From positions 336,682-400,681 of the forward strand of contig CAVXAH010000001.1 in the NCBI GenBank assembly GCA_963759775.1: a stretch of DNA of 64,000 nucleotides, read 5' to 3'. The notes beneath the pieces are model-generated. The model made no database searches and was not told the origin of the DNA. It saw only the letters and a program-made list of their open reading frames with translations. Each line of letters begins with the position of its first letter. The stretch's first letter is position 1. The position numbers and the translations under genes were made by a program. Source of the DNA: an uncultured bacterium (GTDB lineage: Bacteria > Patescibacteriota > Minisyncoccia > Phycocordibacterales > Phycocordibacteraceae). This document shows positions 6,758 through 64,000 of this stretch, one piece after another.

Positions 6758-7443
6758 ACAGAGAGCGCAAAACGCTCAAGCGCCTCGGAAAGATCAGTGC
6801 TCGTTCGGCGAGTGTCTTGAAGAAGTTTGATGAGCGCTAAAGAGAGTGCTCGTGCTTCGCTTGGTTTGTAAGCGCGGCTTCCCTTTTCCATCAGATCACG
6901 CGCTTTCCAGTGGAGCAGGCCATGGAGCGCTTCGGGGGCTTCCCCCGCACGAAGTGCACGAACAATTTCTATCCAAAGTTTTTCGCTTGAGCGGGTTCCA
7001 AGTGCGTTTACAAGGCCAGCATTAAAACCGCGCACCTCTTCCCGCTCCCCTGTTTTATCAAACACGTATGCCATCTTGGCTTTTGCGGCAAGCTTCTTCG
7101 CTTTCGCTTGCGAAAGTTTTGGAGCTAGAATGACAATCACATTTTCAGACTCAACAAGCATAGAAAGCTTCTCTTCAAGTACAGTCGCGTCTGATCGGTC
7201 CTCCTCGTCACCCTCTTCGTCGGTTTTTTTTGACACGGCAAACGGGTCATCAATGAGGGTGAGGGTGCGTTTTGCAAAAAGACTCCCTGACGCAGACGCC
7301 TCTTCCAGTACGCTTTCAGTTATCTCCTCTTTCGCGAGGCGCACGTAGGCAAGGTTGGGCTCTTTTGTTTTTGCAGCCGCGACCCACGCAAACGCTTTCG
7401 CGCGCACTTTTTCTACATCGGAGCCGTAAAAGAGATAAATCAT
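6754..7443 (-). CDS. Possible DNA polymerase III delta subunit (HolA-like)
   Basis: 229 aa starting MIYLFYGSD (HolA-like N-terminus), helical C-terminus, located next to polA; weak assignment. Confidence 0.4.
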   Translation of the reverse strand: MIYLFYGSDVEKVRAKAFAWVAAAKTKEPNLAYVRLAKEEITESVLEEASASGSLFAKRTLTLIDDPFAVSKKTDEEGDEEDRSDATVLEEKLSMLVESENVIVILAPKLSQAKAKKLAAKAKMAYVFDKTGEREEVRGFNAGLVNALGTRSSEKLWIEIVRALRAGEAPEALHGLLHWKARDLMEKGSRAYKPSEARALSLALIKLLQDTRRTSTDLSEALERFALSV

Positions 7444-23433: not shown

Positions 23434-24422
23434 AGGCCAAAGAGTCCTCCGCTGGAGGATTTACCAAAAGAAATAATAAGTGCTGAAGTTGCGTTTTCAG
23501 ACGCTGAAGACTTGCTTGCAGAGAACGAAACAGAGGCGGTTCCTTGGCCTGCGCCTTGTGGGCGGAGTGTAAGGATCTGTCCCGACTGTGCCGCCGAGCC
23601 ATTCAAGAGCCACGACATGCTTGGCGAGCCGCCCCCGTTCCCAAAAGAATACGGAACGCCAAAGAACGAAACCTCGCTGCCGGCGAGCGTAAAGGTTCCG
23701 GAAAGAGCACGTTCAAAGCGGGGACCAAGCAAGGGATCGTTTTCATAAAGACGAATGGAAGGCTCGCTTCCGGAGATGCGTACGGTTTTTTCTCCTATTT
23801 GTGTGCCGTCTACCGTTTTTACCACCACCGAAACAGTGCGTGAGCGATATTGGAGCGGTACTGAAGCGACAACGGAGTCTTTTCCAAGTCCGGAATAGTT
23901 TTGAAAGACCGCATCATCAATCGTCCATGTGTAAGAAAGTCCGGAAGGACTGATGCGCACGCCTGCGGCGGTTCTAAAATCTGTCACCGCAACAACACGC
24001 ACATTTCCGGAGAGTGGAACCAAGGGCTTCCCCGGGTAAAGCGGAGGAGCGGAGGACTGTGGTTCAACAATAAGCGCCACGTCGCCGGGAACAAAAACCA
24101 GATTCTGGGTGTATTTTTTTGGACCCGAGGTAATAACCACGCTCACCGTTGTTTTTGCTCCGGGCGCTCCGAGTGTAACTGAAAAAGGCTGCACATTTCC
24201 CTCGTAGGTCTTAGCGCCATTCACAGAGGCGACCATTGTACTTATGGAGAGGTCAAGCACAGTGCTTGTAGTCGTGATGACCGCCGTTTCATACGGCGCG
24301 GGATTCGTAGGATTTGTCGAAAGTGAGACGGCGGGAACTCCTTGGGCGAAAGCGACGCTTCCCTCGAAAAGCAAAGCGGCCAAGATGGCTACGAGGGAAC
24401 CAAGAACAAAGCGGGATACCAT
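23430..24422 (-). CDS. Secreted hypothetical protein (beta-rich)
   Basis: Signal peptide, repetitive Ig-like beta-strand composition; within T4SS-like block. Confidence 0.5.
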   Translation of the reverse strand: MVSRFVLGSLVAILAALLFEGSVAFAQGVPAVSLSTNPTNPAPYETAVITTTSTVLDLSISTMVASVNGAKTYEGNVQPFSVTLGAPGAKTTVSVVITSGPKKYTQNLVFVPGDVALIVEPQSSAPPLYPGKPLVPLSGNVRVVAVTDFRTAAGVRISPSGLSYTWTIDDAVFQNYSGLGKDSVVASVPLQYRSRTVSVVVKTVDGTQIGEKTVRISGSEPSIRLYENDPLLGPRFERALSGTFTLAGSEVSFFGVPYSFGNGGGSPSMSWLLNGSAAQSGQILTLRPQGAGQGTASVSFSASKSSASENATSALIISFGKSSSGGLFGL

Positions 24423-41029: not shown

Positions 41030-41420
41030 ACTAAAAGGCGTTGTTCGCCTGTAGGTTATTAAATTGTAGCCTGAGGTGTGTTACAGGCAGTGTTTCGAAT
41101 GTTTCTATAGTGTGTCGGGTCATATGGGTTGTGTATGTGTCGTTCTTTGAAAATCGTAGCCTGCTTCGTTACAGGGCCCCGCGATTCCCTCCGTCGTACC
41201 TTTGTACGCCTCTGGAAATCGCTTTCCCCGTGCCTCGCATACTATCGATTTTCAAGGAACTTTTCGCACTTTTCTAAAAATAAATGCCCGCGCACGCGGA
41301 CATCCAATAACCACCAAGATATCAAAAACTGCGTGTTGCGTCAATGAAGCCCTCAGGTTCTTGGCGAGTTATTCATGGAGCGGTTATTCCATAGCCCCTC
41401 GCATACGCTATTATTGGCGC

Positions 41421-43174: not shown

Positions 43175-44389
43175 ATGAAATTCACTGTCACTATCCGAAA
43201 AGGAGATGCGCAAAACGAGACGCGGGTCCTTGAGGCGCCTTCGCGTTTTGCGGTGTATGAAATGGTTGAAAAGGAAGGCGGTACGGTTGTCACTCTCAAA
43301 GAGGGTGGCGGGGCGGGAGGGCGTCCGGCATGGATGGATATAAGCTTTGGCACGGGTATCAAACAGATAGAGGTCATCACGCTCACCAAGAATTTGTCCG
43401 CCATGCTCACCGCAGGACTTTCTCTTTCGCGAGCGCTTTCGGTTATTGAACGACAGTCAAGTAACAAAAGTCTTAAGAAGCTGGTAGTCGCACTCGGCGA
43501 TTCGGTAAAAAAGGGCTCTTCCTTTCATGATGCACTCGCCGAGCACAAAAAAATATTTTCAAGTCTTTACATAGCCATGGCGAGAGCAGGAGAGGAGTCT
43601 GGTTCGCTTGCGCCCTCACTCTCAATTGTCGGTCTTCAGATGGAGAGGACCTACGCACTCATCCGCAAACTCAAAGGAGCCATGATTTATCCGGTGGTGG
43701 TTATCACCGCTATTTTTATCGTGGGAATCCTCATGCTTATTTACGTAGTGCCGACACTCACGGCGACATTCACCTCCCTTAACGTAGAACTTCCGCTTGC
43801 AACAAGAGTGATTGTCGCGCTTTCTAATTTCATGGTGGACCATGTGGTGATCGTCGCCCTCCTTATCATCTTTTCCATAGGTGGCATGATATTTTTCATA
43901 CGCTCAAACGTAGGCTCGGCGATTATCCTCCGAATTGCTCTCCATCTTCCTATCATCGGCGACCTTGTGCGCGAAACGTATGCCGCACGCACCGCCCGCA
44001 CGCTCTCCTCACTTCTTTCTTCTGCCGTTCCCGTTCTTGAGGCTCTTTCCATTACGGCAGAAGTCGTTCATGCGCCACTTTTTGCACGCGTCATTGAGGA
44101 AGCGGAAGTGAAGGTGAAGAAGGGCGAGCCGCTCTCCACCGCATTTATTGAGAATCCGAAACTCTACCCGATATTGATGGGAGACATGCTTGCCGTAGGC
44201 GAAGAAACAGGAAAAGTGGATGAAATGCTCCGGCGCACCGCAGAATTTTACGAAGAAGACGTCTCGGAAAGAACGAAAGACCTCTCAACAGTCATAGAAC
44301 CAGTGCTCATTCTCCTTATCGGTCTTTTTGTCGGTGTCTTTGCGGTCGCCATGATCGCCCCTATCTACTCGCTCTCCTCGGCGATCTAA
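43175..44389 (+). CDS. pilC: Type IV pilus platform protein PilC/GspF
   Basis: 404 aa, two GspF repeats, three TM segments, adjacent to pilB. Confidence 0.9.
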   Translation: MKFTVTIRKGDAQNETRVLEAPSRFAVYEMVEKEGGTVVTLKEGGGAGGRPAWMDISFGTGIKQIEVITLTKNLSAMLTAGLSLSRALSVIERQSSNKSLKKLVVALGDSVKKGSSFHDALAEHKKIFSSLYIAMARAGEESGSLAPSLSIVGLQMERTYALIRKLKGAMIYPVVVITAIFIVGILMLIYVVPTLTATFTSLNVELPLATRVIVALSNFMVDHVVIVALLIIFSIGGMIFFIRSNVGSAIILRIALHLPIIGDLVRETYAARTARTLSSLLSSAVPVLEALSITAEVVHAPLFARVIEEAEVKVKKGEPLSTAFIENPKLYPILMGDMLAVGEETGKVDEMLRRTAEFYEEDVSERTKDLSTVIEPVLILLIGLFVGVFAVAMIAPIYSLSSAI

Positions 44390-46509: not shown

Positions 46510-46980
46510 TTAAAGGCCACCAACTTCGGTGACAAGCGTGGTGAGTGACACGTACCGCGAACTGCCGGTTGATGCTACCCACGCGACGCCGACGACAACC
46601 TTTTTGGTCTTCGTGTTGTAAGTGGAGACGCTGGTACTCGCAGAGGCAGACGGGATAGAGGCAAGCAGTGGATCACTAAAGATGCCGCTCGGAGGGAGCG
46701 CCGCATATCCGAGCGCACGGAGTTCATCAAGTTTGGTATGAGCGACACGAAGGGCGGTGTGTTCAAAGCGAATTTCGGCAGCGTTTTTAAGTAGCGTACC
46801 GACTACGCTAAAGAGAGTAATCGAAACACCCACAATAAAAACAGCGACCAGAGTTTCAATGAGCGTAAACCCTCGGAAGGTTTTTCTCCCTGCGCTCGCC
46901 GCAGACAAACGCATGGGGACATGCGCTTGTCGTTCGGCTCGTTTGGTAGTAAAACCTCGGCGAGAGACCCTCTGAATCAT
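46510..46980 (-). CDS. Type IV pilin-like protein 2 (prepilin), start uncertain
   Basis: Prepilin motif G|FTLIETLVAVFIVG; in-frame starts ATG 46980 (6 nt after a TATACT box) or ATG 46914. Confidence 0.8.
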   Translation of the reverse strand: MIQRVSRRGFTTKRAERQAHVPMRLSAASAGRKTFRGFTLIETLVAVFIVGVSITLFSVVGTLLKNAAEIRFEHTALRVAHTKLDELRALGYAALPPSGIFSDPLLASIPSASASTSVSTYNTKTKKVVVGVAWVASTGSSRYVSLTTLVTEVGGL

Positions 46981-46987
46981 GGATGCA

Positions 46988-47034
46988 GTATACCCCCACA
47001 CGAACTTCTCCAGACAGTTCGTGTGGGGGTATAC
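46988..47034. promoter_or_regulatory. 18-bp perfect palindrome carrying two divergent TATACT boxes (pilin 2 / tpiA)
   Basis: GTATACCCCCACACGAAC-11 nt-GTTCGTGTGGGGGTATAC; each outer end plus one T reads TATACT, 6 nt from ATG 47042 (tpiA) and ATG 46980 (pilin 2). Confidence 0.5.
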
Positions 47035-47041
47035 TTGCGGA

Positions 47042-47785
47042 ATGCTTATGGTCGCCAACTGGAAAGCGTATGTGGGGACGGCCGAAGAGGCACGAAAGCT
47101 TTTTTCAGTCGCAAAGCGTCTTGCATCCAAAACCCGTGTGCGCATAGTGCTTCTCCCACCGGCCCCACTTTTCGGACTCCTCGCGCCAAAAAATAAGTCA
47201 CGAGTTTCTTTTGGCGTACAAGACGTTTCAACAAAAATGAGCGGCGCACATACGGGCGAGGTGACTGCCGAGACGGTCGCCGGCCTGGGGGCGAAGTATG
47301 TGATTGTTGGTCATTCCGAGCGCCGTGCCGCGGGCGAGTCGCTCCCACAGATTACCGAGAAGCTCCGCCGCGTGCTCGTGGAAGACCTCACGCCTGTTTT
47401 GTGTGTCGGTGAAAGCGAGCGCGACTCCGATGGTCGCTATCTCGCATACGTGCGCGAAGAAATTACTTCAGCACTTCTTCCGCTCTCACCGAGAGACCGC
47501 TCCCGCGTCGTCATTGCGTACGAACCTATTTGGGCAATTGGAAAAACCGCCGCTGACGCTCTCTCTGCGTCCGATCTTGCTGAAATGGTTTTGTATATCA
47601 GAAAAGTGCTTGCCGAAATTCTCCCCGGCAAATCAAGTGCACGAACCAAAGTGCTCTACGGCGGTTCGGTTGAGTCCGAAAATGCACGTGCACTTGCGGG
47701 CGGGACGCAAATAGACGGGTTCTTGGTCGGCCATGCGTCTACGGACCCGGTTACTTTTTCAAAACTCGTGCACGCAATCTCGTAA
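47042..47785 (+). CDS. tpiA: Triosephosphate isomerase
   Basis: MLMVANWKAY start, VIVGHSERR, AYEPIWAIGTG-like (AYEPIWAIGKT), YGGSV motifs. Confidence 0.9.
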   Translation: MLMVANWKAYVGTAEEARKLFSVAKRLASKTRVRIVLLPPAPLFGLLAPKNKSRVSFGVQDVSTKMSGAHTGEVTAETVAGLGAKYVIVGHSERRAAGESLPQITEKLRRVLVEDLTPVLCVGESERDSDGRYLAYVREEITSALLPLSPRDRSRVVIAYEPIWAIGKTAADALSASDLAEMVLYIRKVLAEILPGKSSARTKVLYGGSVESENARALAGGTQIDGFLVGHASTDPVTFSKLVHAIS

Positions 47786-47792
47786 CCATGAG

Positions 47793-47909
47793 TCCCGTTA
47801 GAAATCGCGGACGCTATAATGAGCATCACGGTATGCACGATATTTTTATGAGCTCTAATCAAGTAGGGGGCGGCGCTATTGAAGCGTTCGCGTCCTATTT
47901 CTAACGGGA
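47793..47909. mobile_element. MITE-like 117-bp TIR element in the pgk start codon (copy A)
   Basis: TIRs TCCCGTTAGAAAT 47793-47805 / ATTTCTAACGGGA 47897-47909; direct TGAG at 47789-47792 and 47910-47913. Confidence 0.6.
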
Positions 47910-49057
47910 TGAGACCGGTACAGGACATTCCGGTATTCAAAAACATTCCCGTTCTCGTGCGCACGGAAATGAATGTGCCCATTGAAAATGGGGTGGTGGC
48001 TAATGACTATCGCCTGAGGAGAGCTCTGCCAACCATAACGTACCTCGCAGAGCGCGGAGCGCGCGTGATTCTCGTGAGTCATATTGGGGAAAAAGGAACC
48101 GAAACACTTCTCCCGGTTGCGGAGGCACTCAAAACCCTCATAGCTAAAGTTTCTTTTTGTTCCACAACAATAGGTACGGAGGCACGAAGCGCTATACGTG
48201 CGCTCTTACCAGGTGGCGTGCTCGTTCTTGAAAACGTGCGGCGCAATCGCGGGGAAGTGATGAATGATCCGGCATTTGCAAAAGAACTCGCGACACTCGC
48301 AGACGTTTTTGTTGAAGACAGTTTTGACACTTGCCACCGCGCTCACGCATCCATTGTCGGAGTGCCCACACTCCTCCCAAGCTACGCAGGTCTTTTGCTT
48401 CAAGAAGAAATGAAAGAGCTTGGTAAAGCGGGGCATCCAAAAAAACCTGCAATTGCGATTATTGGAGGAGCAAAATTTTCCACAAAAGAACCGGTATTGA
48501 AATCCCTCCTCACTACCTACGACCAGGTATATGTAGGAGGAGCACTCGCGAACGACTTCCTTAAAGCGTCGGGTAACTCTGTAGGAGCATCTCTTGTCTC
48601 TGGCGCTTCACCCGACGAAATTGCTCCGCTTCTAGAGAATAAAAAATTAATCCTTCCCAAGGATGTAGTGGTAATTCCAAAAGAGGCGCAGGGCGCAGAC
48701 GATGTGCGTATGCATTCTCGCGTGAGGGCGGTGAACGCAGTGAAGGATGACGAAATTATTCTTGATATGGGTCCCGACTCCAGCACCCGACTTGCACACG
48801 CGGCACGAGCGGCAAAGACTATTCTCTGGAACGGTCCGCTTGGAAATTACGAACACGGGTTTACTGATGCCACAAACATGCTTGCAAAAGCGATAGCGGA
48901 AAGTGGGGCGCATTCGGTGGTCGGTGGTGGCGACACGGTTGCCGCCATAGAAATGCTCGGCATTCTCCATCGTTTTTCTTTCGTTTCAACCGGCGGTGGC
49001 GCCATGCTTGACCTCATAGCCAAGGGTACGCTCCCAGGTATTGACGTATTGAAGTAA
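47909..49057 (+). CDS. pgk: Phosphoglycerate kinase
   Basis: VLVRTEMNVP, hinge and C-terminal GGGDT / STGGGA motifs; ATG 47909 formed by the last A of the TIR plus TG of the direct repeat. Confidence 0.9.
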   Translation: MRPVQDIPVFKNIPVLVRTEMNVPIENGVVANDYRLRRALPTITYLAERGARVILVSHIGEKGTETLLPVAEALKTLIAKVSFCSTTIGTEARSAIRALLPGGVLVLENVRRNRGEVMNDPAFAKELATLADVFVEDSFDTCHRAHASIVGVPTLLPSYAGLLLQEEMKELGKAGHPKKPAIAIIGGAKFSTKEPVLKSLLTTYDQVYVGGALANDFLKASGNSVGASLVSGASPDEIAPLLENKKLILPKDVVVIPKEAQGADDVRMHSRVRAVNAVKDDEIILDMGPDSSTRLAHAARAAKTILWNGPLGNYEHGFTDATNMLAKAIAESGAHSVVGGGDTVAAIEMLGILHRFSFVSTGGGAMLDLIAKGTLPGIDVLK

Positions 49058-49356: not shown

Positions 49357-49785
49357 TTAAGTAAGCGCGTCGCGAATACTTTTTGCGATTTTTTCTTTTT
49401 CACCTTCAGCGTAGCTTTTCTCGGGCCAAAAGTGGAACTCGTTCCGGTCATGACGGGGAATGATATGGAAATGAAGATGAAAGACAATTTGTCCGGCAGC
49501 TGCCTCATGATTTGAGTTGATATGCACACCGCTCGCACCAACTGCGTCCCGCACGGCGGGTGCGATTTTACGTACGGTGCGCATTACTGCGGCAAGCGTT
49601 GCATCATCAGTATCGAAAATATTTCTCACAGACTTTTTTGGAATCACGAGTGTGTGTCCAGGAACATTGGGACGAATATCAAGAAAGGCAAGTGTCTCGG
49701 CATCCTCGTACACAATGTCAGCTGGGATCTCCCGACGAATGATTTTTGCAAAAGGAGTGTCTTCCACCCCGTTAGAAGTTTTCAT
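49357..49785 (-). CDS. HIT family hydrolase
   Basis: Histidine triad HLHFHIIP; start is either in-element ATG 49785 or GTG 49767 at the element junction. Confidence 0.85.
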   Translation of the reverse strand: MKTSNGVEDTPFAKIIRREIPADIVYEDAETLAFLDIRPNVPGHTLVIPKKSVRNIFDTDDATLAAVMRTVRKIAPAVRDAVGASGVHINSNHEAAAGQIVFHLHFHIIPRHDRNEFHFWPEKSYAEGEKEKIAKSIRDALT

Positions 49786-49868
49786 ACCGTTATTTTTCCG
49801 AAGAAATAAATTTAGAAAAAGAAAGTTCGTTTGAACGAATACTCAAATGGGTTGAACTTCTAACGGGG
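49767..49868. mobile_element. MITE-like 102-bp TIR element in the HIT gene start codon (copy C)
   Basis: TIRs CCCCGTTAGAAGTT 49767-49780 / AACTTCTAACGGGG 49855-49868; direct TCCA at 49763-49766 and 49869-49872. Confidence 0.6.
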
Positions 49869-56992: not shown

Positions 56993-57052
56993 CACTTCAT
57001 TTCGCCCGCCAGAGTATTGGGTTTTATACGCCAAAACACTTGCCCCGGCAGA

Positions 57053-57166
57053 CACTTTGGCATCGTGCCACGTCGTGCATCGAGAATGTTTCAAATCAAA
57101 ATTAATCTGTGTAATTTTATTTTCTTCGTGAACGTGCGGTGGCACGAGCACGACAATGCCAAAGTG
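57053..57166 (+). promoter_or_regulatory. Structured leader upstream of rpsO
   Basis: CACTTTGGCAT (57053-57063) pairs with ATGCCAAAGTG (57156-57166); CGTGCCAC (57064-57071) pairs with GTGGCACG (57139-57146); alternative pairing GTCGTGC/GCACGAC. Confidence 0.35.
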
Positions 57167-57215
57167 TTCGACAGGGCTTGCGTTCAATGTCAAGGTATGG
57201 TACAGTAGCTAGGTA

Positions 57216-57597: not shown

Positions 57598-58113
57598 ATG
57601 GCAGTTATTAAACATTCAGCTCAGCGTGTGGGCGTATTCATTGACACGCAAAATCTCTATCACAGTGCGAAACATCTCTACAAGGCGCGCGTGAACTTCG
57701 CGAAAGTTCTTGAAGAAGCAGTAGGCGGTCGCGTGCTTGTGCGCGCCATCGCGTACGTCATCAAAACAGATAGCGGTGAAGAATCCGCCTTTTTTGATGC
57801 GCTTACTAAGATCGGCATTGAAACCAAAGTCAAAGACTTGCAGGTGTTTGCCGATGGAGCAAAAAAGGCCGACTGGGACGTAGGTCTTGCAATTGATGCG
57901 GTGAAACTTTCACCAAAACTGGACACCGTTATTCTCGCTACGGGCGACGGCGACTACGTACCGCTTATTGAATATCTTGATATGCACACGGGATGTCAGG
58001 TGGAAGTCATTTCCTTTGGAAGGTCTTCTTCGGCAAAATTAAAAGAGGCCGCGCACGCCTTTACCGACATGGGTGAGGACCCTAAAAAGTTCACTATCGG
58101 ACCAAGAGGGTAA
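57598..58113 (+). CDS. NYN/LabA-like domain protein
   Basis: RVGVFIDTQNLYHS...ATGDGDYVPLI pattern of LabA/NYN nucleases. Confidence 0.7.
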   Translation: MAVIKHSAQRVGVFIDTQNLYHSAKHLYKARVNFAKVLEEAVGGRVLVRAIAYVIKTDSGEESAFFDALTKIGIETKVKDLQVFADGAKKADWDVGLAIDAVKLSPKLDTVILATGDGDYVPLIEYLDMHTGCQVEVISFGRSSSAKLKEAAHAFTDMGEDPKKFTIGPRG

Positions 58114-58222
58114 CCCCTTACCACTTTGAGAGTTTGGCCACACCATCTCTCGTATGAACCGCGAGGTTACCTCGCGGTTCATGTTTGTACACCCTTGGGT
58201 ATCTCTCAAAGTGGTAAGGGGT
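58113..58222. repeat. Nested perfect inverted repeats (20-bp outer, 14-bp inner)
   Basis: ACCCCTTACCACTTTGAGAG 58113-58132 / CTCTCAAAGTGGTAAGGGGT 58203-58222; inner palindrome ATGAACCGCGAGGT-T-ACCTCGCGGTTCAT 58154-58182. Confidence 0.85.
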
Positions 58223-58249
58223 GCGCTACTATTGTAAGTACGTCATGAG

Positions 58250-58360
58250 CCCCGTTAGAAATTCAGCGAGCCTCCGTACTTTTCTCACGCTAATGCGCGA
58301 ACTCGCCTCACGGCTCCCTCATACTACCTATATACGTTATGGATAAAATTTCTAACGGGG
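58250..58360. mobile_element. MITE-like 111-bp TIR element in a start codon (copy B)
   Basis: TIRs CCCCGTTAGAAATT 58250-58263 / AATTTCTAACGGGG 58347-58360; direct TGAG at 58246-58249 and 58361-58364. Confidence 0.6.
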
Positions 58361-60039
58361 TGAGCGACCAAAACCAGAGCGAGCCGAACATTGATTCAGG
58401 TGAAATAAAAAAATACATCCGCACGTTTCAAAGCGATGCGGCGGCTCTTCAAAGTGGGACTCATCCGGACCTTGCTCCGCTTGCGCCTTCTCCTGTCACA
58501 CCAGCTCCGCAAACCCCGCCTCCCGCGCGCCCTACTCCAAGATCGCTACCACCAATTCCATATCCGAAGCCATATGATGCTCCTCCATCACCACCACCCC
58601 CGAAAGCTGAACCAAGGAAAATAGCTGAAGTGAGGAGGGTAGTGGACCCCGCCGCCTCTGCAATTGCAGAGATTGAGGCATATGAGAGAGATCTTGAGGC
58701 AGCAGAAAGAGTCGCCCCGCCCCCACCTCATCCAAAAATTTCTGTACCACCTCTCTCGAGAGCATCTCTAGGGGATTCGCGCGAAGTGATTCTTGCGAGA
58801 CTCCGCGCACGAGCAGGCGGAGCGGTCGTACCAGCTGCACCAATCGTAAAATCACCACCTTCGTCTATACCGCCACAACCAAAAGTCATTTCGCCACCCC
58901 CACAAACACTACGTGTAGATAATTCTGAAGAAGCGAAGGCTCTTGCCGAACTTAAGGAACGTCGAGAACATGCTCGCCACCTTGTTGAAGCGCGTCTCAC
59001 TGCCGCAGGGGAAGCTTCGCCACAAATGCCCGGAGCTATCCCTTCCTCACCGAGCCTCCAAAGCCCAAGCGAGCGTCTTATCGGAGGATCTCCTTTTATA
59101 GGAGCACCAGAAACGTCCGCTCCACCTCCACCGTTTATGTTTAAACCACCAGCATCTCCATCGTTGGATACTGCCGCGCCGCTCCATACCTATGAAAGTG
59201 ATTTTTCTGTACGTGTTCAGGAAACGAAAGCTTCAAAAGCAACCATTCTCGCCGCCGAAGGGGACCATGGAGTATCACAGCCGCAAGAAAAAAGTGAAGA
59301 CCCCCGCACACGTCTCCGAAATAGAATCTATATAGCCCTCGGCGCAGTTTTTCTTTTTGGAACCATAGGAAGTGCGTACCTCGTTACTACGTATTATAGA
59401 AATAATCCCGAGACCGTAGCGCCAGCGAAAGTAGTACAAACGCCAATTTTTGTTGACGACCGCGTGCAAGTGAGCGGCACAGGTCGAGAGCTCGCCGCCG
59501 CCCTGTGGCAGGCGGTTACTGCACCTTTGCCGGAAAGTAATGTACGTCTTCTGTACACCGGAAGTGGCACCACTACCAAAACCAACCTCCTGGGGGACTT
59601 AGGTCTTCCGGTGCCTGATGTGGTGCTCCGCAATATATATGCCGAGGGCAGTATGGTAGGAGCGATACATGCAGGTGACGAACAAAGTCCGTTCTTCATT
59701 CTCGCAGTCGCCTCCTATCGCGACACCTTTGCGGGAATGTTTTCTTGGGAGTCGCGCATAACACAAGATCTCGCAGAACTTTTCCCTACATACGAAACGT
59801 CAACCGCTCCGCCGTCCACTAGTGGGACAACGACGCCGGGAGCTCAGCCCACTTTTTTACTCCTTGGTTTTCATGATGAGGTCATTGCAAATCACGACAC
59901 GCGCGTGTACCGCGATGGGAGCGGGCGAAGCATTCTCTTGTATGGATATTGGAATCCGCAAACGCTCATTATTGCTCGAAATGAAGCAGCATTTGCTGAA
60001 ATTATTTCCCGATTCGGCACCTCTCGCACGGCGCAATAA
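58339..60039 (+). CDS. Proline-rich single-pass membrane protein, hypothetical
   Basis: Pro-rich N-half, TM IYIALGAVFLFGTIGSAYLV, globular C-half; start is in-element ATG 58339 or junction GTG 58360. Confidence 0.6.
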   Translation: MDKISNGVSDQNQSEPNIDSGEIKKYIRTFQSDAAALQSGTHPDLAPLAPSPVTPAPQTPPPARPTPRSLPPIPYPKPYDAPPSPPPPKAEPRKIAEVRRVVDPAASAIAEIEAYERDLEAAERVAPPPPHPKISVPPLSRASLGDSREVILARLRARAGGAVVPAAPIVKSPPSSIPPQPKVISPPPQTLRVDNSEEAKALAELKERREHARHLVEARLTAAGEASPQMPGAIPSSPSLQSPSERLIGGSPFIGAPETSAPPPPFMFKPPASPSLDTAAPLHTYESDFSVRVQETKASKATILAAEGDHGVSQPQEKSEDPRTRLRNRIYIALGAVFLFGTIGSAYLVTTYYRNNPETVAPAKVVQTPIFVDDRVQVSGTGRELAAALWQAVTAPLPESNVRLLYTGSGTTTKTNLLGDLGLPVPDVVLRNIYAEGSMVGAIHAGDEQSPFFILAVASYRDTFAGMFSWESRITQDLAELFPTYETSTAPPSTSGTTTPGAQPTFLLLGFHDEVIANHDTRVYRDGSGRSILLYGYWNPQTLIIARNEAAFAEIISRFGTSRTAQ

Positions 60040-63353: not shown

Positions 63354-63665
63354 TCGGGATAGTCCGGAAAGATGCTGATTGGGTTCTATAGGGAAAGGGG
63401 GTAGCGAGGTCGGGCTTCCAGGTACAAAAATGGCTTAGATACGCCATTTCTTTCGGATGTTCGGGTCAGTCGATACTTCTACTCTATCTCATGAAGAGAG
63501 GATGAGCAACCCCATTTTGGCTATCTGGGGACAGTGGTTTTTAGGGTAGAGTACGCAAGTGAAATACCCCGGGGGACAACATGGCATCGCGGCTTTTGTT
63601 TTTTCGTTGTTTCTAGACCAGAATCTAGCGATTTTTACTAGAACGGACGATTATTGCAGTAAATA

Positions 63666-64000
63666 ATGGAGCCGCGCATAAAAAACAATGCCATGTTGTA
63701 CCACAGGGAATACCTCGAAAAGCTCAATGCAGCGCAAAAAGAAGCAGTTCTCGCAACCGACGGCCCGGTTTCAGTTTTGGCGGGTGCGGGATCAGGAAAA
63801 ACGCGGGTTTTGACGACCCGCATCTACCACCTTATTCGGCAGGGTGTCCCGGCGGACAAAATCTTGGCGGTGACGTTCACTAACAAAGCAGCCAGGGAGA
63901 TGCGCGAGCGGGTAAGGGTTATGCTCGGGGAAGAAGACAATGCACATTCCTCCCCACTTCCGTTTGTCTCAACTTTTCATGGGCTTGGTCGTGAACTCTT
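63666..64000 (+). CDS. UvrD/PcrA/Rep family helicase, 5' partial (runs off window)
   Basis: LNAAQKEAV...[17 protein letters not shown]...[16 protein letters not shown] read from sequence; not in ORF track because no stop occurs in the window. Confidence 0.85.

Follow-up and report, generated by a model that had tools for sequence, protein, structure and literature searches.

In this work we asked what the 111-bp sequence is that splits the start codon of a gene for a proline-rich protein in the DNA of an uncultured bacterium of the Phycocordibacterales (Patescibacteriota; assembly GCA_963759775.1), and how a gene split in this way could still be translated. The window, by which we mean the whole 64,000-nucleotide stretch that was analysed, contains three sequences of this type (copies A, B and C), which have perfect terminal inverted repeats (TIRs) in common and unrelated interiors; the one in question is copy B. 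Is it a mobile element and, if so, of what kind? Copy B did enter its gene, between A and TGAG of the native start (A/TG, the slash marking the junction in the start codon), and duplicated 4 bp of the target; we call it a true insertion because the syntenic ortholog at the locus L121 carries the predicted empty site. As to its kind, copy B is probably best read as a non-autonomous relative, resembling MITEs (miniature inverted-repeat transposable elements), of small elements that encode a GIY-YIG nuclease. This reading comes from sequence comparison, and the participation of the nuclease and the translational coupling to the host gene are its inferred parts.

The locus L121 has the gene order S15, NYN, host gene, DksA-type zinc finger, Mg-chelatase-like (ComM-type) ATPase and LysM/M23. 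The initial annotation of the window had reconstructed an empty site and proposed that the locus be compared between genomes; the 111-bp region is indeed absent from the orthologous locus, where the predicted site acgtcATGAGCGAC stands in the local sequence ...GTACTATgaacatacgtcATGAGCGACAAG. A single ATGAGCGAC is found there in place of the two TGAG copies of the window, whose junction reads CTACTATtgtaagtacgtcATGAG, the 111 bp, TGAGCGACCAAAAC; these junctions were aligned by eye, automatic alignment being poor. The N-termini of homologs agree with the reconstruction as well: the host protein has homologs across Patescibacteria, and the closest two, with 53% and 51% identity, show the N-terminus MSDKKPFEPDID, while that reconstructed for the window protein is MSDQNQSEPNID. 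The -10-like hexamer TACTAT, which had been placed 12 nt before the native ATG, is present at that distance and is conserved between both genomes, standing 11 nt before the ATG in L121. A further contig, from an independent assembly, encodes an identical host protein sequence. Metagenomes did not yield the exact empty allele of copy B.

On re-reading, the positions assigned earlier to the TIRs, to the TGAG copies and to the three possible starts (ATG 58245, ATG 58339 and GTG 58360) all proved right (Table 1). The ends of copy B, C-CCCGTTAGAA...TTCTAACGGG-G, fit the family ends YCCCGTTAGAR...YTCTAACGGGR with a complementary terminal pair. The annotated 33-codon mini-ORF (ORF, open reading frame) beginning MSPVRN was likewise recovered: it begins outside the element, its first six codons are determined by the target and the left TIR, and it is the sole ORF within the 111 bp. 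This leader ORF overlaps the in-frame ATG 58339, and its stop lies 9 nt before the TAA of the TIR and 14 nt before the rebuilt GTG, which keeps the original reading frame of the host gene. The public gene call P0001 (58339-60039; 566 aa, MDKISNGV...) starts at the in-element ATG. It had also been suggested that the transcript be folded; in the fold predicted for the RNA of 58230-58400 (171 nt) the 14-bp TIRs pair, and the stem includes the GTG 58360 region (minimum free energy -45 kcal/mol, z = -2.5 against shuffles). The leader ORF spans the 5' arm of this predicted stem, the one which pairs with the GTG region. No covariance model of Rfam 15 matched copies A, B or C, even at E up to 10.

Table 1. 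Coordinates of the host gene, of copy B and its parts, and of copies A and C in the window
Feature	Position	Strand	Remarks
Host gene	58360..60039	+	proline-rich protein, 559 aa; no Pfam domain; conserved in Patescibacteria
Copy B	58250..58360	+	111 bp; terminal pair C..G; read as non-autonomous
TIRs of copy B	58250-58263 and 58347-58360	+	perfect, 14/14 bp; left CCCCGTTAGAAATT, right its exact reverse complement AATTTCTAACGGGG
TGAG, left copy of target-site duplication	58246..58249	+	read from the sequence; single TGAG in ortholog L121
TGAG, right copy of target-site duplication	58361..58364	+	sequence and comparison with L121
TACTAT, -10-like hexamer of host gene	58227..58232	+	12 nt 5' of native ATG
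Native ATG of host gene	58245..58247	+	now start of leader mini-ORF; opens MSDKK... directly in L121
Leader mini-ORF	58245..58346	+	33 codons and TAA (58344-58346); MSPVRNSASLRTFLTLMRELASRLPHTTYIRYG
In-element ATG	58339..58341	+	in frame with host gene; 5 nt upstream of leader stop; would add MDKISNG
GTG, rebuilt start codon	58360..58362	+	last base G of element and TG of target
Copy A	47793..47909	+	117 bp; terminal pair T..A; at pgk start codon; host protein PGK
Copy C	49767..49868	-	102 bp; terminal pair C..G; at start codon of a gene with 136 codons

Is copy B an isolated case? Within the window the 14-mer of the repeat occurs six times with at most two mismatches, which makes three inverted pairs; shuffled sequences average 0.5 occurrences and none of 100 reached six. 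Copies A and C are as they had been described in the initial annotation. Copy A has TGAG duplicated at 47789-47792 and 47910-47913 and the ATG rebuilt at 47909; its leader ORF of 38 codons ends at the TAA of the TIR, 4 nt before the rebuilt ATG, and its target is coupled to the upstream gene. Copy C stands between the native ATG (49873-49871) and a GTG rebuilt at 49767-49765, with TGGA duplicated and, like copy B, with an in-frame ATG inside the element (49785); its host gene is HIT-like, judging from its N-terminus. None of the three interiors matched another sampled interior.

Beyond the window the repeats belong to a very large, start-codon-specific family with C..G or T..A terminal pairs, a feature which lay outside the view of the initial annotation. 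We scanned genomes, one per species, with the pattern CCCGTTAGAA-N70-100-TTCTAACGGG and obtained at least 120 loci; more than 130 short copies were sampled, and the family counts given here refer to the matches listed. Among these, the hosts are mostly Patescibacteria (Saccharibacteria, Parcubacteria-type groups, Kaiserbacteria), and further copies are found in genomes of Omnitrophota, Planctomycetota, Desulfobacterota-type bacteria and Thermodesulfovibrionales. The interiors are highly diverse, 142 elements falling into 108 similarity clusters, and the host sites share no flanking homology, dozens of unrelated genes being occupied within and across genomes. The base just outside the 10-mer covaries, T on the left going with A on the right and C on the left with G on the right, and because the terminal pair is either T..A or C..G, the right end together with the TG of the target spells ATG or GTG. 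Of the 68 T..A copies, 61 stand precisely where an ORF of 60 codons or more begins, and 50 of these retain a copy of the native ATG on the left; of the 58 C..G copies, 13 stand at such a start. In the 54 empty sites that we reconstructed, the duplication was always anchored at A/TG and measured 4 nt in 47 and 3 nt in seven; the native codon was ATG in 52, and the upstream open frame had a median of 9.5 codons as compared with 73 for control ATGRR sites. Could selection alone have left the elements where we see them? A selection-only model, which takes insertion at every TGRR or ATGRR outside coding sequence to be neutral, would place 7% or 21% of copies at gene starts, whereas 90% of the T..A copies were observed there (P = 3e-33). 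The host genes are often essential: they include PilC (four times), PGK (twice, copy A being one), ATP synthase subunits, TopA, IspH, FtsW, ClpP, UvrD, aminoacyl-tRNA synthetases, FtsK, LepA, SecDF, ribosomal protein L1 and NusA. Therefore the insertions must be compatible with expression.

What could have moved such elements? The first relatives with coding capacity were found at two loci (L120 and L063): they measure about 276 bp, have the ends CCCCGTTAGAGAT...ATCTCTAACGGGG and encode a protein of 84-87 aa with a GIY-YIG nuclease domain (Pfam PF01541, E = 3.6e-16). A scan of metagenomes with the pattern CCCGTTAGAG-N245-275-CTCTAACGGG gave at least 120 loci, and the counts of coding elements again refer to the matches listed. 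We analysed 121 coding elements, 94 of them with an intact ORF of 80-97 aa; the median pairwise identity of these 94 nucleases is 64%, and the positions of the catalytic Tyr, Tyr, Arg, His, Glu and Asn are conserved. Of 61 intact T..A coding copies, 52 abut the start of a host ORF in the same orientation, and not one is in the opposite orientation; a clean example (L137, 3234-3511) stands in front of a 743-codon gene. The nuclease ORF is interlocked with its target. In 25 of the 61 T..A copies it starts at the ATG of the host itself, giving MNPVRD..., and its stop is a TGA supplied by the target and overlapping the rebuilt host ATG (...TCT CTA ACG GGA TGA AA) in 53 of the 61 T..A and 21 of 29 C..G copies; in 12 copies the TAA of the repeat serves as the stop (...TAT CTC TAA CGG G ATG). 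The nearest solved structures are those of UPF0213 proteins (1ZG2, 1YWL) and of SLX1 (E = 1.5e-6 to 1e-2). In public databases the nuclease (P0043-P0162) goes by the names 'GIY-YIG nuclease family protein', 'putative endonuclease' and, wrongly, 'excinuclease ABC subunit C', and its 92-aa forms are gene calls which begin at the ATG of the host gene.

Several observations connect the short and the coding forms. Their ends are nearly alike, and the duplication and the position in the target agree. Element lengths are bimodal, at about 60-130 and about 260-290 bp, with three repeat pairs near 1 kb besides, and both forms occur together in 23 of the 120 metagenome loci listed. Some gene families also have their start codons occupied by either form (RuvX by one short copy and three long, MurG by one short and two long), and their homologs without an element align from residue 1. 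Moreover, the 3' arm of the subfamily of copy A (...GCGTCC-TAT-TTCTAACGGG, peptide ending in ASYF) matches the 3' end of a nuclease variant whose peptide ends in ASYL.

How, then, might the host gene be translated? Of the three frames through the left repeat, two meet a stop (TGA and TAG) and just one, that of the native ATG, is open (ATG-NNY-CCC-GTT-AGA). In the right repeat one frame meets a TAA that leaves 4 nt to the rebuilt start (TTC TAA CGG G/ATG), another has a TGA that overlaps the rebuilt start when the target is TGAR, and the third is the frame of the host. An ATG-initiated ORF of at least 15 codons that ends at the TAA of the TIR is present in 33 of 75 start-codon copies; for the five control frames the corresponding counts are 6-9 of 75 (Fisher P = 8e-11). 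These 33 ORFs span 28 unrelated interior clusters. The suggestion made from copy B, that a leader ORF is read and the host gene then restarted, thus fits the statistics of the whole family. Its companion, that the elements carry an initiation codon of their own, holds for one class: of the 13 C..G copies, which rebuild the weaker GTG, 8 have an in-frame ATG a few codons further upstream, copies B and C being examples, as against 10 of the 62 T..A copies (P = 0.0016). Where the sub-terminal helix is asymmetric, its orientation relative to the host gene is 29:0; the asymmetry was classed by a sequence rule, minimum-free-energy folding being ambiguous. From these features it appears that the host gene of copy B is probably translated by way of the leader ORF, followed by reinitiation at ATG 58339 or GTG 58360.

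We hypothesize that short copies such as B would be mobilised by a GIY-YIG nuclease supplied in trans, and an SLX1-like recognition of the paired element ends is plausible. Ribosomes would start at the native ATG, translate the leader ORF and so melt the 14-bp stem; termination of the leader could then be followed by reinitiation at one of the two downstream starts. Translation coupled in this way would let an insertion be tolerated even in an essential gene, and the position at start codons may result from a target preference for A/TGRR together with strong selection for sites at which expression is preserved. Could the whole family represent a new class of prokaryotic transposon? We regard the chance of this as substantial. 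Its sole protein would be a minimal UPF0213/SLX1-like GIY-YIG nuclease recognising the hairpin or cruciform ends of its own element; insertion would be aimed at the first bases of start codons. With no start and no stop codon of its own, the element would take the ATG of the host and the TGA of the target and return a start through the ATGA overlap, and the short copies, as its non-autonomous riders, would occupy a few per cent of the gene starts of many Patescibacteria. Put together in this complete form, the proposal has in our estimate slightly less than an even chance of being correct.

A number of observations weigh against this interpretation. GIY-YIG enzymes are hydrolytic nucleases not known to catalyse strand transfer, and the 85-aa nuclease is without an obvious DNA-binding domain. 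No GIY-YIG ORF of the family is present in the 64-kb window, copy B included, and because it is without one, copy B can only be a non-autonomous member. Its interior is not similar to that of any other sampled short copy or coding element; five short copies do have interiors similar to long ones, and copy B is not among them. Position 10 of the repeat is A in most short copies and G in the pattern used to search for coding elements. It is thus three shared features, the repeats, the duplication and the target, that would connect copy B to the coding elements. Many C..G copies outside Patescibacteria lie away from start codons, and in 11 T..A copies the upstream ATG has decayed, so a leader ORF is not universal. 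Nor is the distance from the native ATG to the rebuilt start conserved modulo 3, and we have discarded the idea of a fixed frame offset. Lastly, a scan with consensus promoters found no full -35/-10 pair near copy B.

Might copy B be an ordinary MITE derived from a DDE insertion sequence (IS1380/piggyBac-like or IS5-like), with the GIY-YIG gene as cargo or in a separate element which shares the ends? DDE transposons typically combine TIRs with a duplication of 3-4 bp, the repeat starts with CCC and has a 4-bp target, as in piggyBac and IS1380, and nearly all short copies have interiors that are not related to the nuclease gene. We nevertheless consider this origin unlikely. No DDE transposase lies between these repeats in about 240 loci (loci, not whole genomes), and the 120 genome loci contain neither a pair of repeats at the spacing of an insertion sequence nor a recurrent transposase-like protein. 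The repeat-bounded coding elements among the matches listed carry the GIY-YIG ORF alone, and lengths are bimodal; this ORF is moreover built into the ends, with its first and last codons or its stop within the repeats and the target. Homing in place of transposition, in which the nuclease cuts empty start-codon sites, repair copies the element in, and the short copies are immobile remnants, seems to us improbable. The clean 3-4-bp duplications and the inverted repeats are not products of homing, the target genes are dozens, unrelated and without common flanking homology, and elements at the same gene in different genomes differ in subtype and in the orientation of their internal structure. The nuclease, with 84-97 aa in total, moreover lacks a DNA-binding domain of the I-TevI type. 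What speaks for homing is that GIY-YIG nucleases are classic homing enzymes, that the only NCBIfam match, weak and sub-threshold, is to group I intron endonucleases, and that the same genes have been struck repeatedly across lineages (PilC and RuvX four times each, MurG three times and PGK twice).

It is also conceivable that copy B is a resident regulatory leader, made of an upstream ORF and a hairpin, whose mobility is ancient and whose repeats are kept by selection on RNA structure. The three copies of the window share perfect repeats alone, leader ORFs ending at the TIR stop are found in those 28 unrelated interior clusters, and a stable stem precedes housekeeping genes; all this would suit a regulator. 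The ortholog, however, functions without the element, no Rfam family matches it, the upstream ATGs have decayed in some copies, and conserved ends are equally expected of nuclease recognition sites, so that we judge this explanation to be quite improbable. The chance that the inverted repeat is accidental or an artefact of assembly is close to nil: the short length of the repeat is all that would favour it, while no shuffle out of 100 reached the observed count, hundreds of copies are present in independent assemblies, the identical host protein stands on a second independent contig and L121 has the empty site. On anatomy we also rejected an integron attC site, which has RYYYAAC at its 5' end and GTTRRRY at its 3' end with AAC/GTT on the inner side of the stem (here the order is the reverse, GTTAGAA on the left and TTCTAAC on the right, with GTT on the outer side), as well as elements like IS200/IS605, an intron and translational bypass. 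A hidden DDE transposase, homing and a regulatory leader, each with some support, agree less well with the anatomy than does a non-autonomous relative of a GIY-YIG element, our preferred reading of copy B.

Several further observations concern the family. Some C..G copies outside Patescibacteria lie exactly at a -35 box (L018 7369-7461, L074 2335-2437, L109 475-569, L114 5050-5141): the right end reads G/TTGACA, TATAAT or TAAAAT follows about 17 nt later, and the duplicated TTGA rebuilds the promoter element. The recurrent host genes are PilC (L033, L092, L036, L061), RuvX (L080, L174, L176, L236), MurG (L081, L193, L248) and PGK (copy A of the window and L036). Elements at the same gene in distant genomes are of different subtypes and have differently oriented internal structures, which suggests hot spots (genes starting with ATGAA or ATGAG) or repeated selection and not shared ancestry of the insertions. 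At four loci elements stand in tandem or abut, with ends a few bases apart (L021 7674-7895, L090 ~500-533, L104 ~7400-7440, L120 3870-3891), suggesting insertion beside or into existing copies. The pattern was matched in seven phage-like viral contigs (L123-L129) as well; the sequence there is CCCGTTAGAACG...CGTTCTAACGGG, is not flanked by a duplication and does not stand at a start codon, and it is probably an unrelated hairpin. We also rejected the idea that the elements target the transcription starts of leaderless genes: -10-like hexamers are enriched, at 26 of 55 sites as compared with 24%, but many targets have Shine-Dalgarno-like leaders or are coupled to an upstream gene.

The window itself holds other sites and repeats of a similar kind. 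Its pilC gene at 43175 (+), ATGAAATTC, is an empty version of a start-codon site that is filled in L036, and the inorganic pyrophosphatase gene starting at 24386 (-), ATGAATCTT, is an empty version of one filled in L088; both start codons are candidate target sites. Directly after the stop of the NYN gene begins a 110-bp unit (58113-58222) with perfect 20-nt inverted ends (ACCCCTTACCACTTTGAGAG); a hairpin of 14 bp lies inside it at 58154-58182, and the hairpin that L121 has at this place is terminator-like and unrelated. This unit, immediately upstream of the promoter of copy B, may likewise be palindromic DNA that is mobile. In 46979-47045 an inverted repeat of 20 nt, perfect as well (46987-47006 and 47016-47035, AGTATACCCCCACACGAACT), begins 8 nt after the ATG at 46979 and lies just before the conserved N-terminus of TpiA (ATG near 47043), with TGC on either flank. 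By its appearance this is a small palindrome of another type, inserted where a gene begins, by which the apparent start codon is shifted. At 63564-63711 an imperfect 24-nt inverted repeat holds in its right arm the likely start ATG 63694 of a gene for a UvrD-like helicase, and would add one more type to the repeat elements that stand at gene starts here. Two more imperfect inverted repeats are found at 57035-57184 and 41142-41260 (32 nt at 75% and 15 nt at 93%).

What follows if our reading is correct? The elements would show how insertions can be tolerated in compact genomes: the start codon is rebuilt, translation is coupled and essential genes survive. They would also offer natural cases of leaderless initiation, reinitiation and upstream-ORF control in Patescibacteria, and they point to a possible new kind of transposase, that is, a transposase-like role for the smallest GIY-YIG nucleases (UPF0213/YhbQ). 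A more practical consequence is an annotation problem, as gene callers place the starts of host genes inside the element, P0001 being an example. We class copy B as a MITE specific for start codons, which restores the codon that it splits and is linked to a GIY-YIG element. Its family is apparently undescribed; in the literature searched we found no published description of the repeat, of start-codon MITEs in bacteria of the candidate phyla radiation (CPR), or of repeat-bounded elements with GIY-YIG, YhbQ or UPF0213 proteins. Among insertions in CPR rRNA genes, GIY-YIG ORFs are reported only for those which do not count as group I or group II introns, and these ORFs are said not to behave like homing elements (PMC11270868). 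They may be members of the present family.

How do these elements compare with known systems? Copy B resembles the bacterial MITEs in that it is short and has TIRs, a target duplication and an empty site, with three copies per 64 kb. The Correia/NEMIS elements of Neisseria, the pneumococcal RUP and the enterobacterial ERIC sequences are short non-coding MITEs with TIRs and a short duplication of the target, present in many copies, which are co-transcribed with the genes beside them and form hairpins in mRNA; they insert in intergenic regions at simple targets such as TA and are derived from DDE insertion sequences. The present elements differ from them in standing at A/TG, in having a terminal base that completes ATG or GTG and in having relatives which encode a GIY-YIG and not a DDE enzyme. 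The seg genes of phage T4 and I-TevI represent free-standing GIY-YIG homing endonuclease genes, and the coding elements are like them selfish genes with a GIY-YIG nuclease as sole product. Homing endonuclease genes, however, join a DNA-binding domain to the catalytic one and have a single cognate site, with neither repeats nor duplication. The coding elements are bounded by inverted repeats, are flanked by duplications and stand at many unrelated loci in each genome; their nuclease is a bare catalytic domain of about 85 aa, and its ORF borrows its start from the host and its stop from the target.

By sequence, the closest relatives of this nuclease are UPF0213/YhbQ (1ZG2, 1YWL) and SLX1, and it may share the structure specificity of the latter. 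SLX1 cuts branched and stem-loop DNA, an activity that would suit element ends able to form a cruciform, and no UPF0213 or SLX1 protein is known to be encoded within a repeat-bounded mobile unit. Mycobacterial interspersed repetitive units (MIRUs) reportedly carry small ORFs that overlap the flanking stop and start codons; the present elements are likewise repeated between or before genes, with a short ORF placed for translational coupling to the gene downstream. MIRUs, however, are not known to have inverted repeats or duplications, to stand at the start codon of the first gene or to have a relative with a nuclease. The Rickettsia palindromic elements and the 'byp' elements of Magnusiomyces mitochondria are palindromic, mobile and located inside coding regions, where they are translated in frame or hopped over. 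Like them, the present elements are so designed that damage to the host protein is limited; unlike them, copy B precedes the coding sequence proper, and termination followed by reinitiation would be the simplest account of how its host gene is read.

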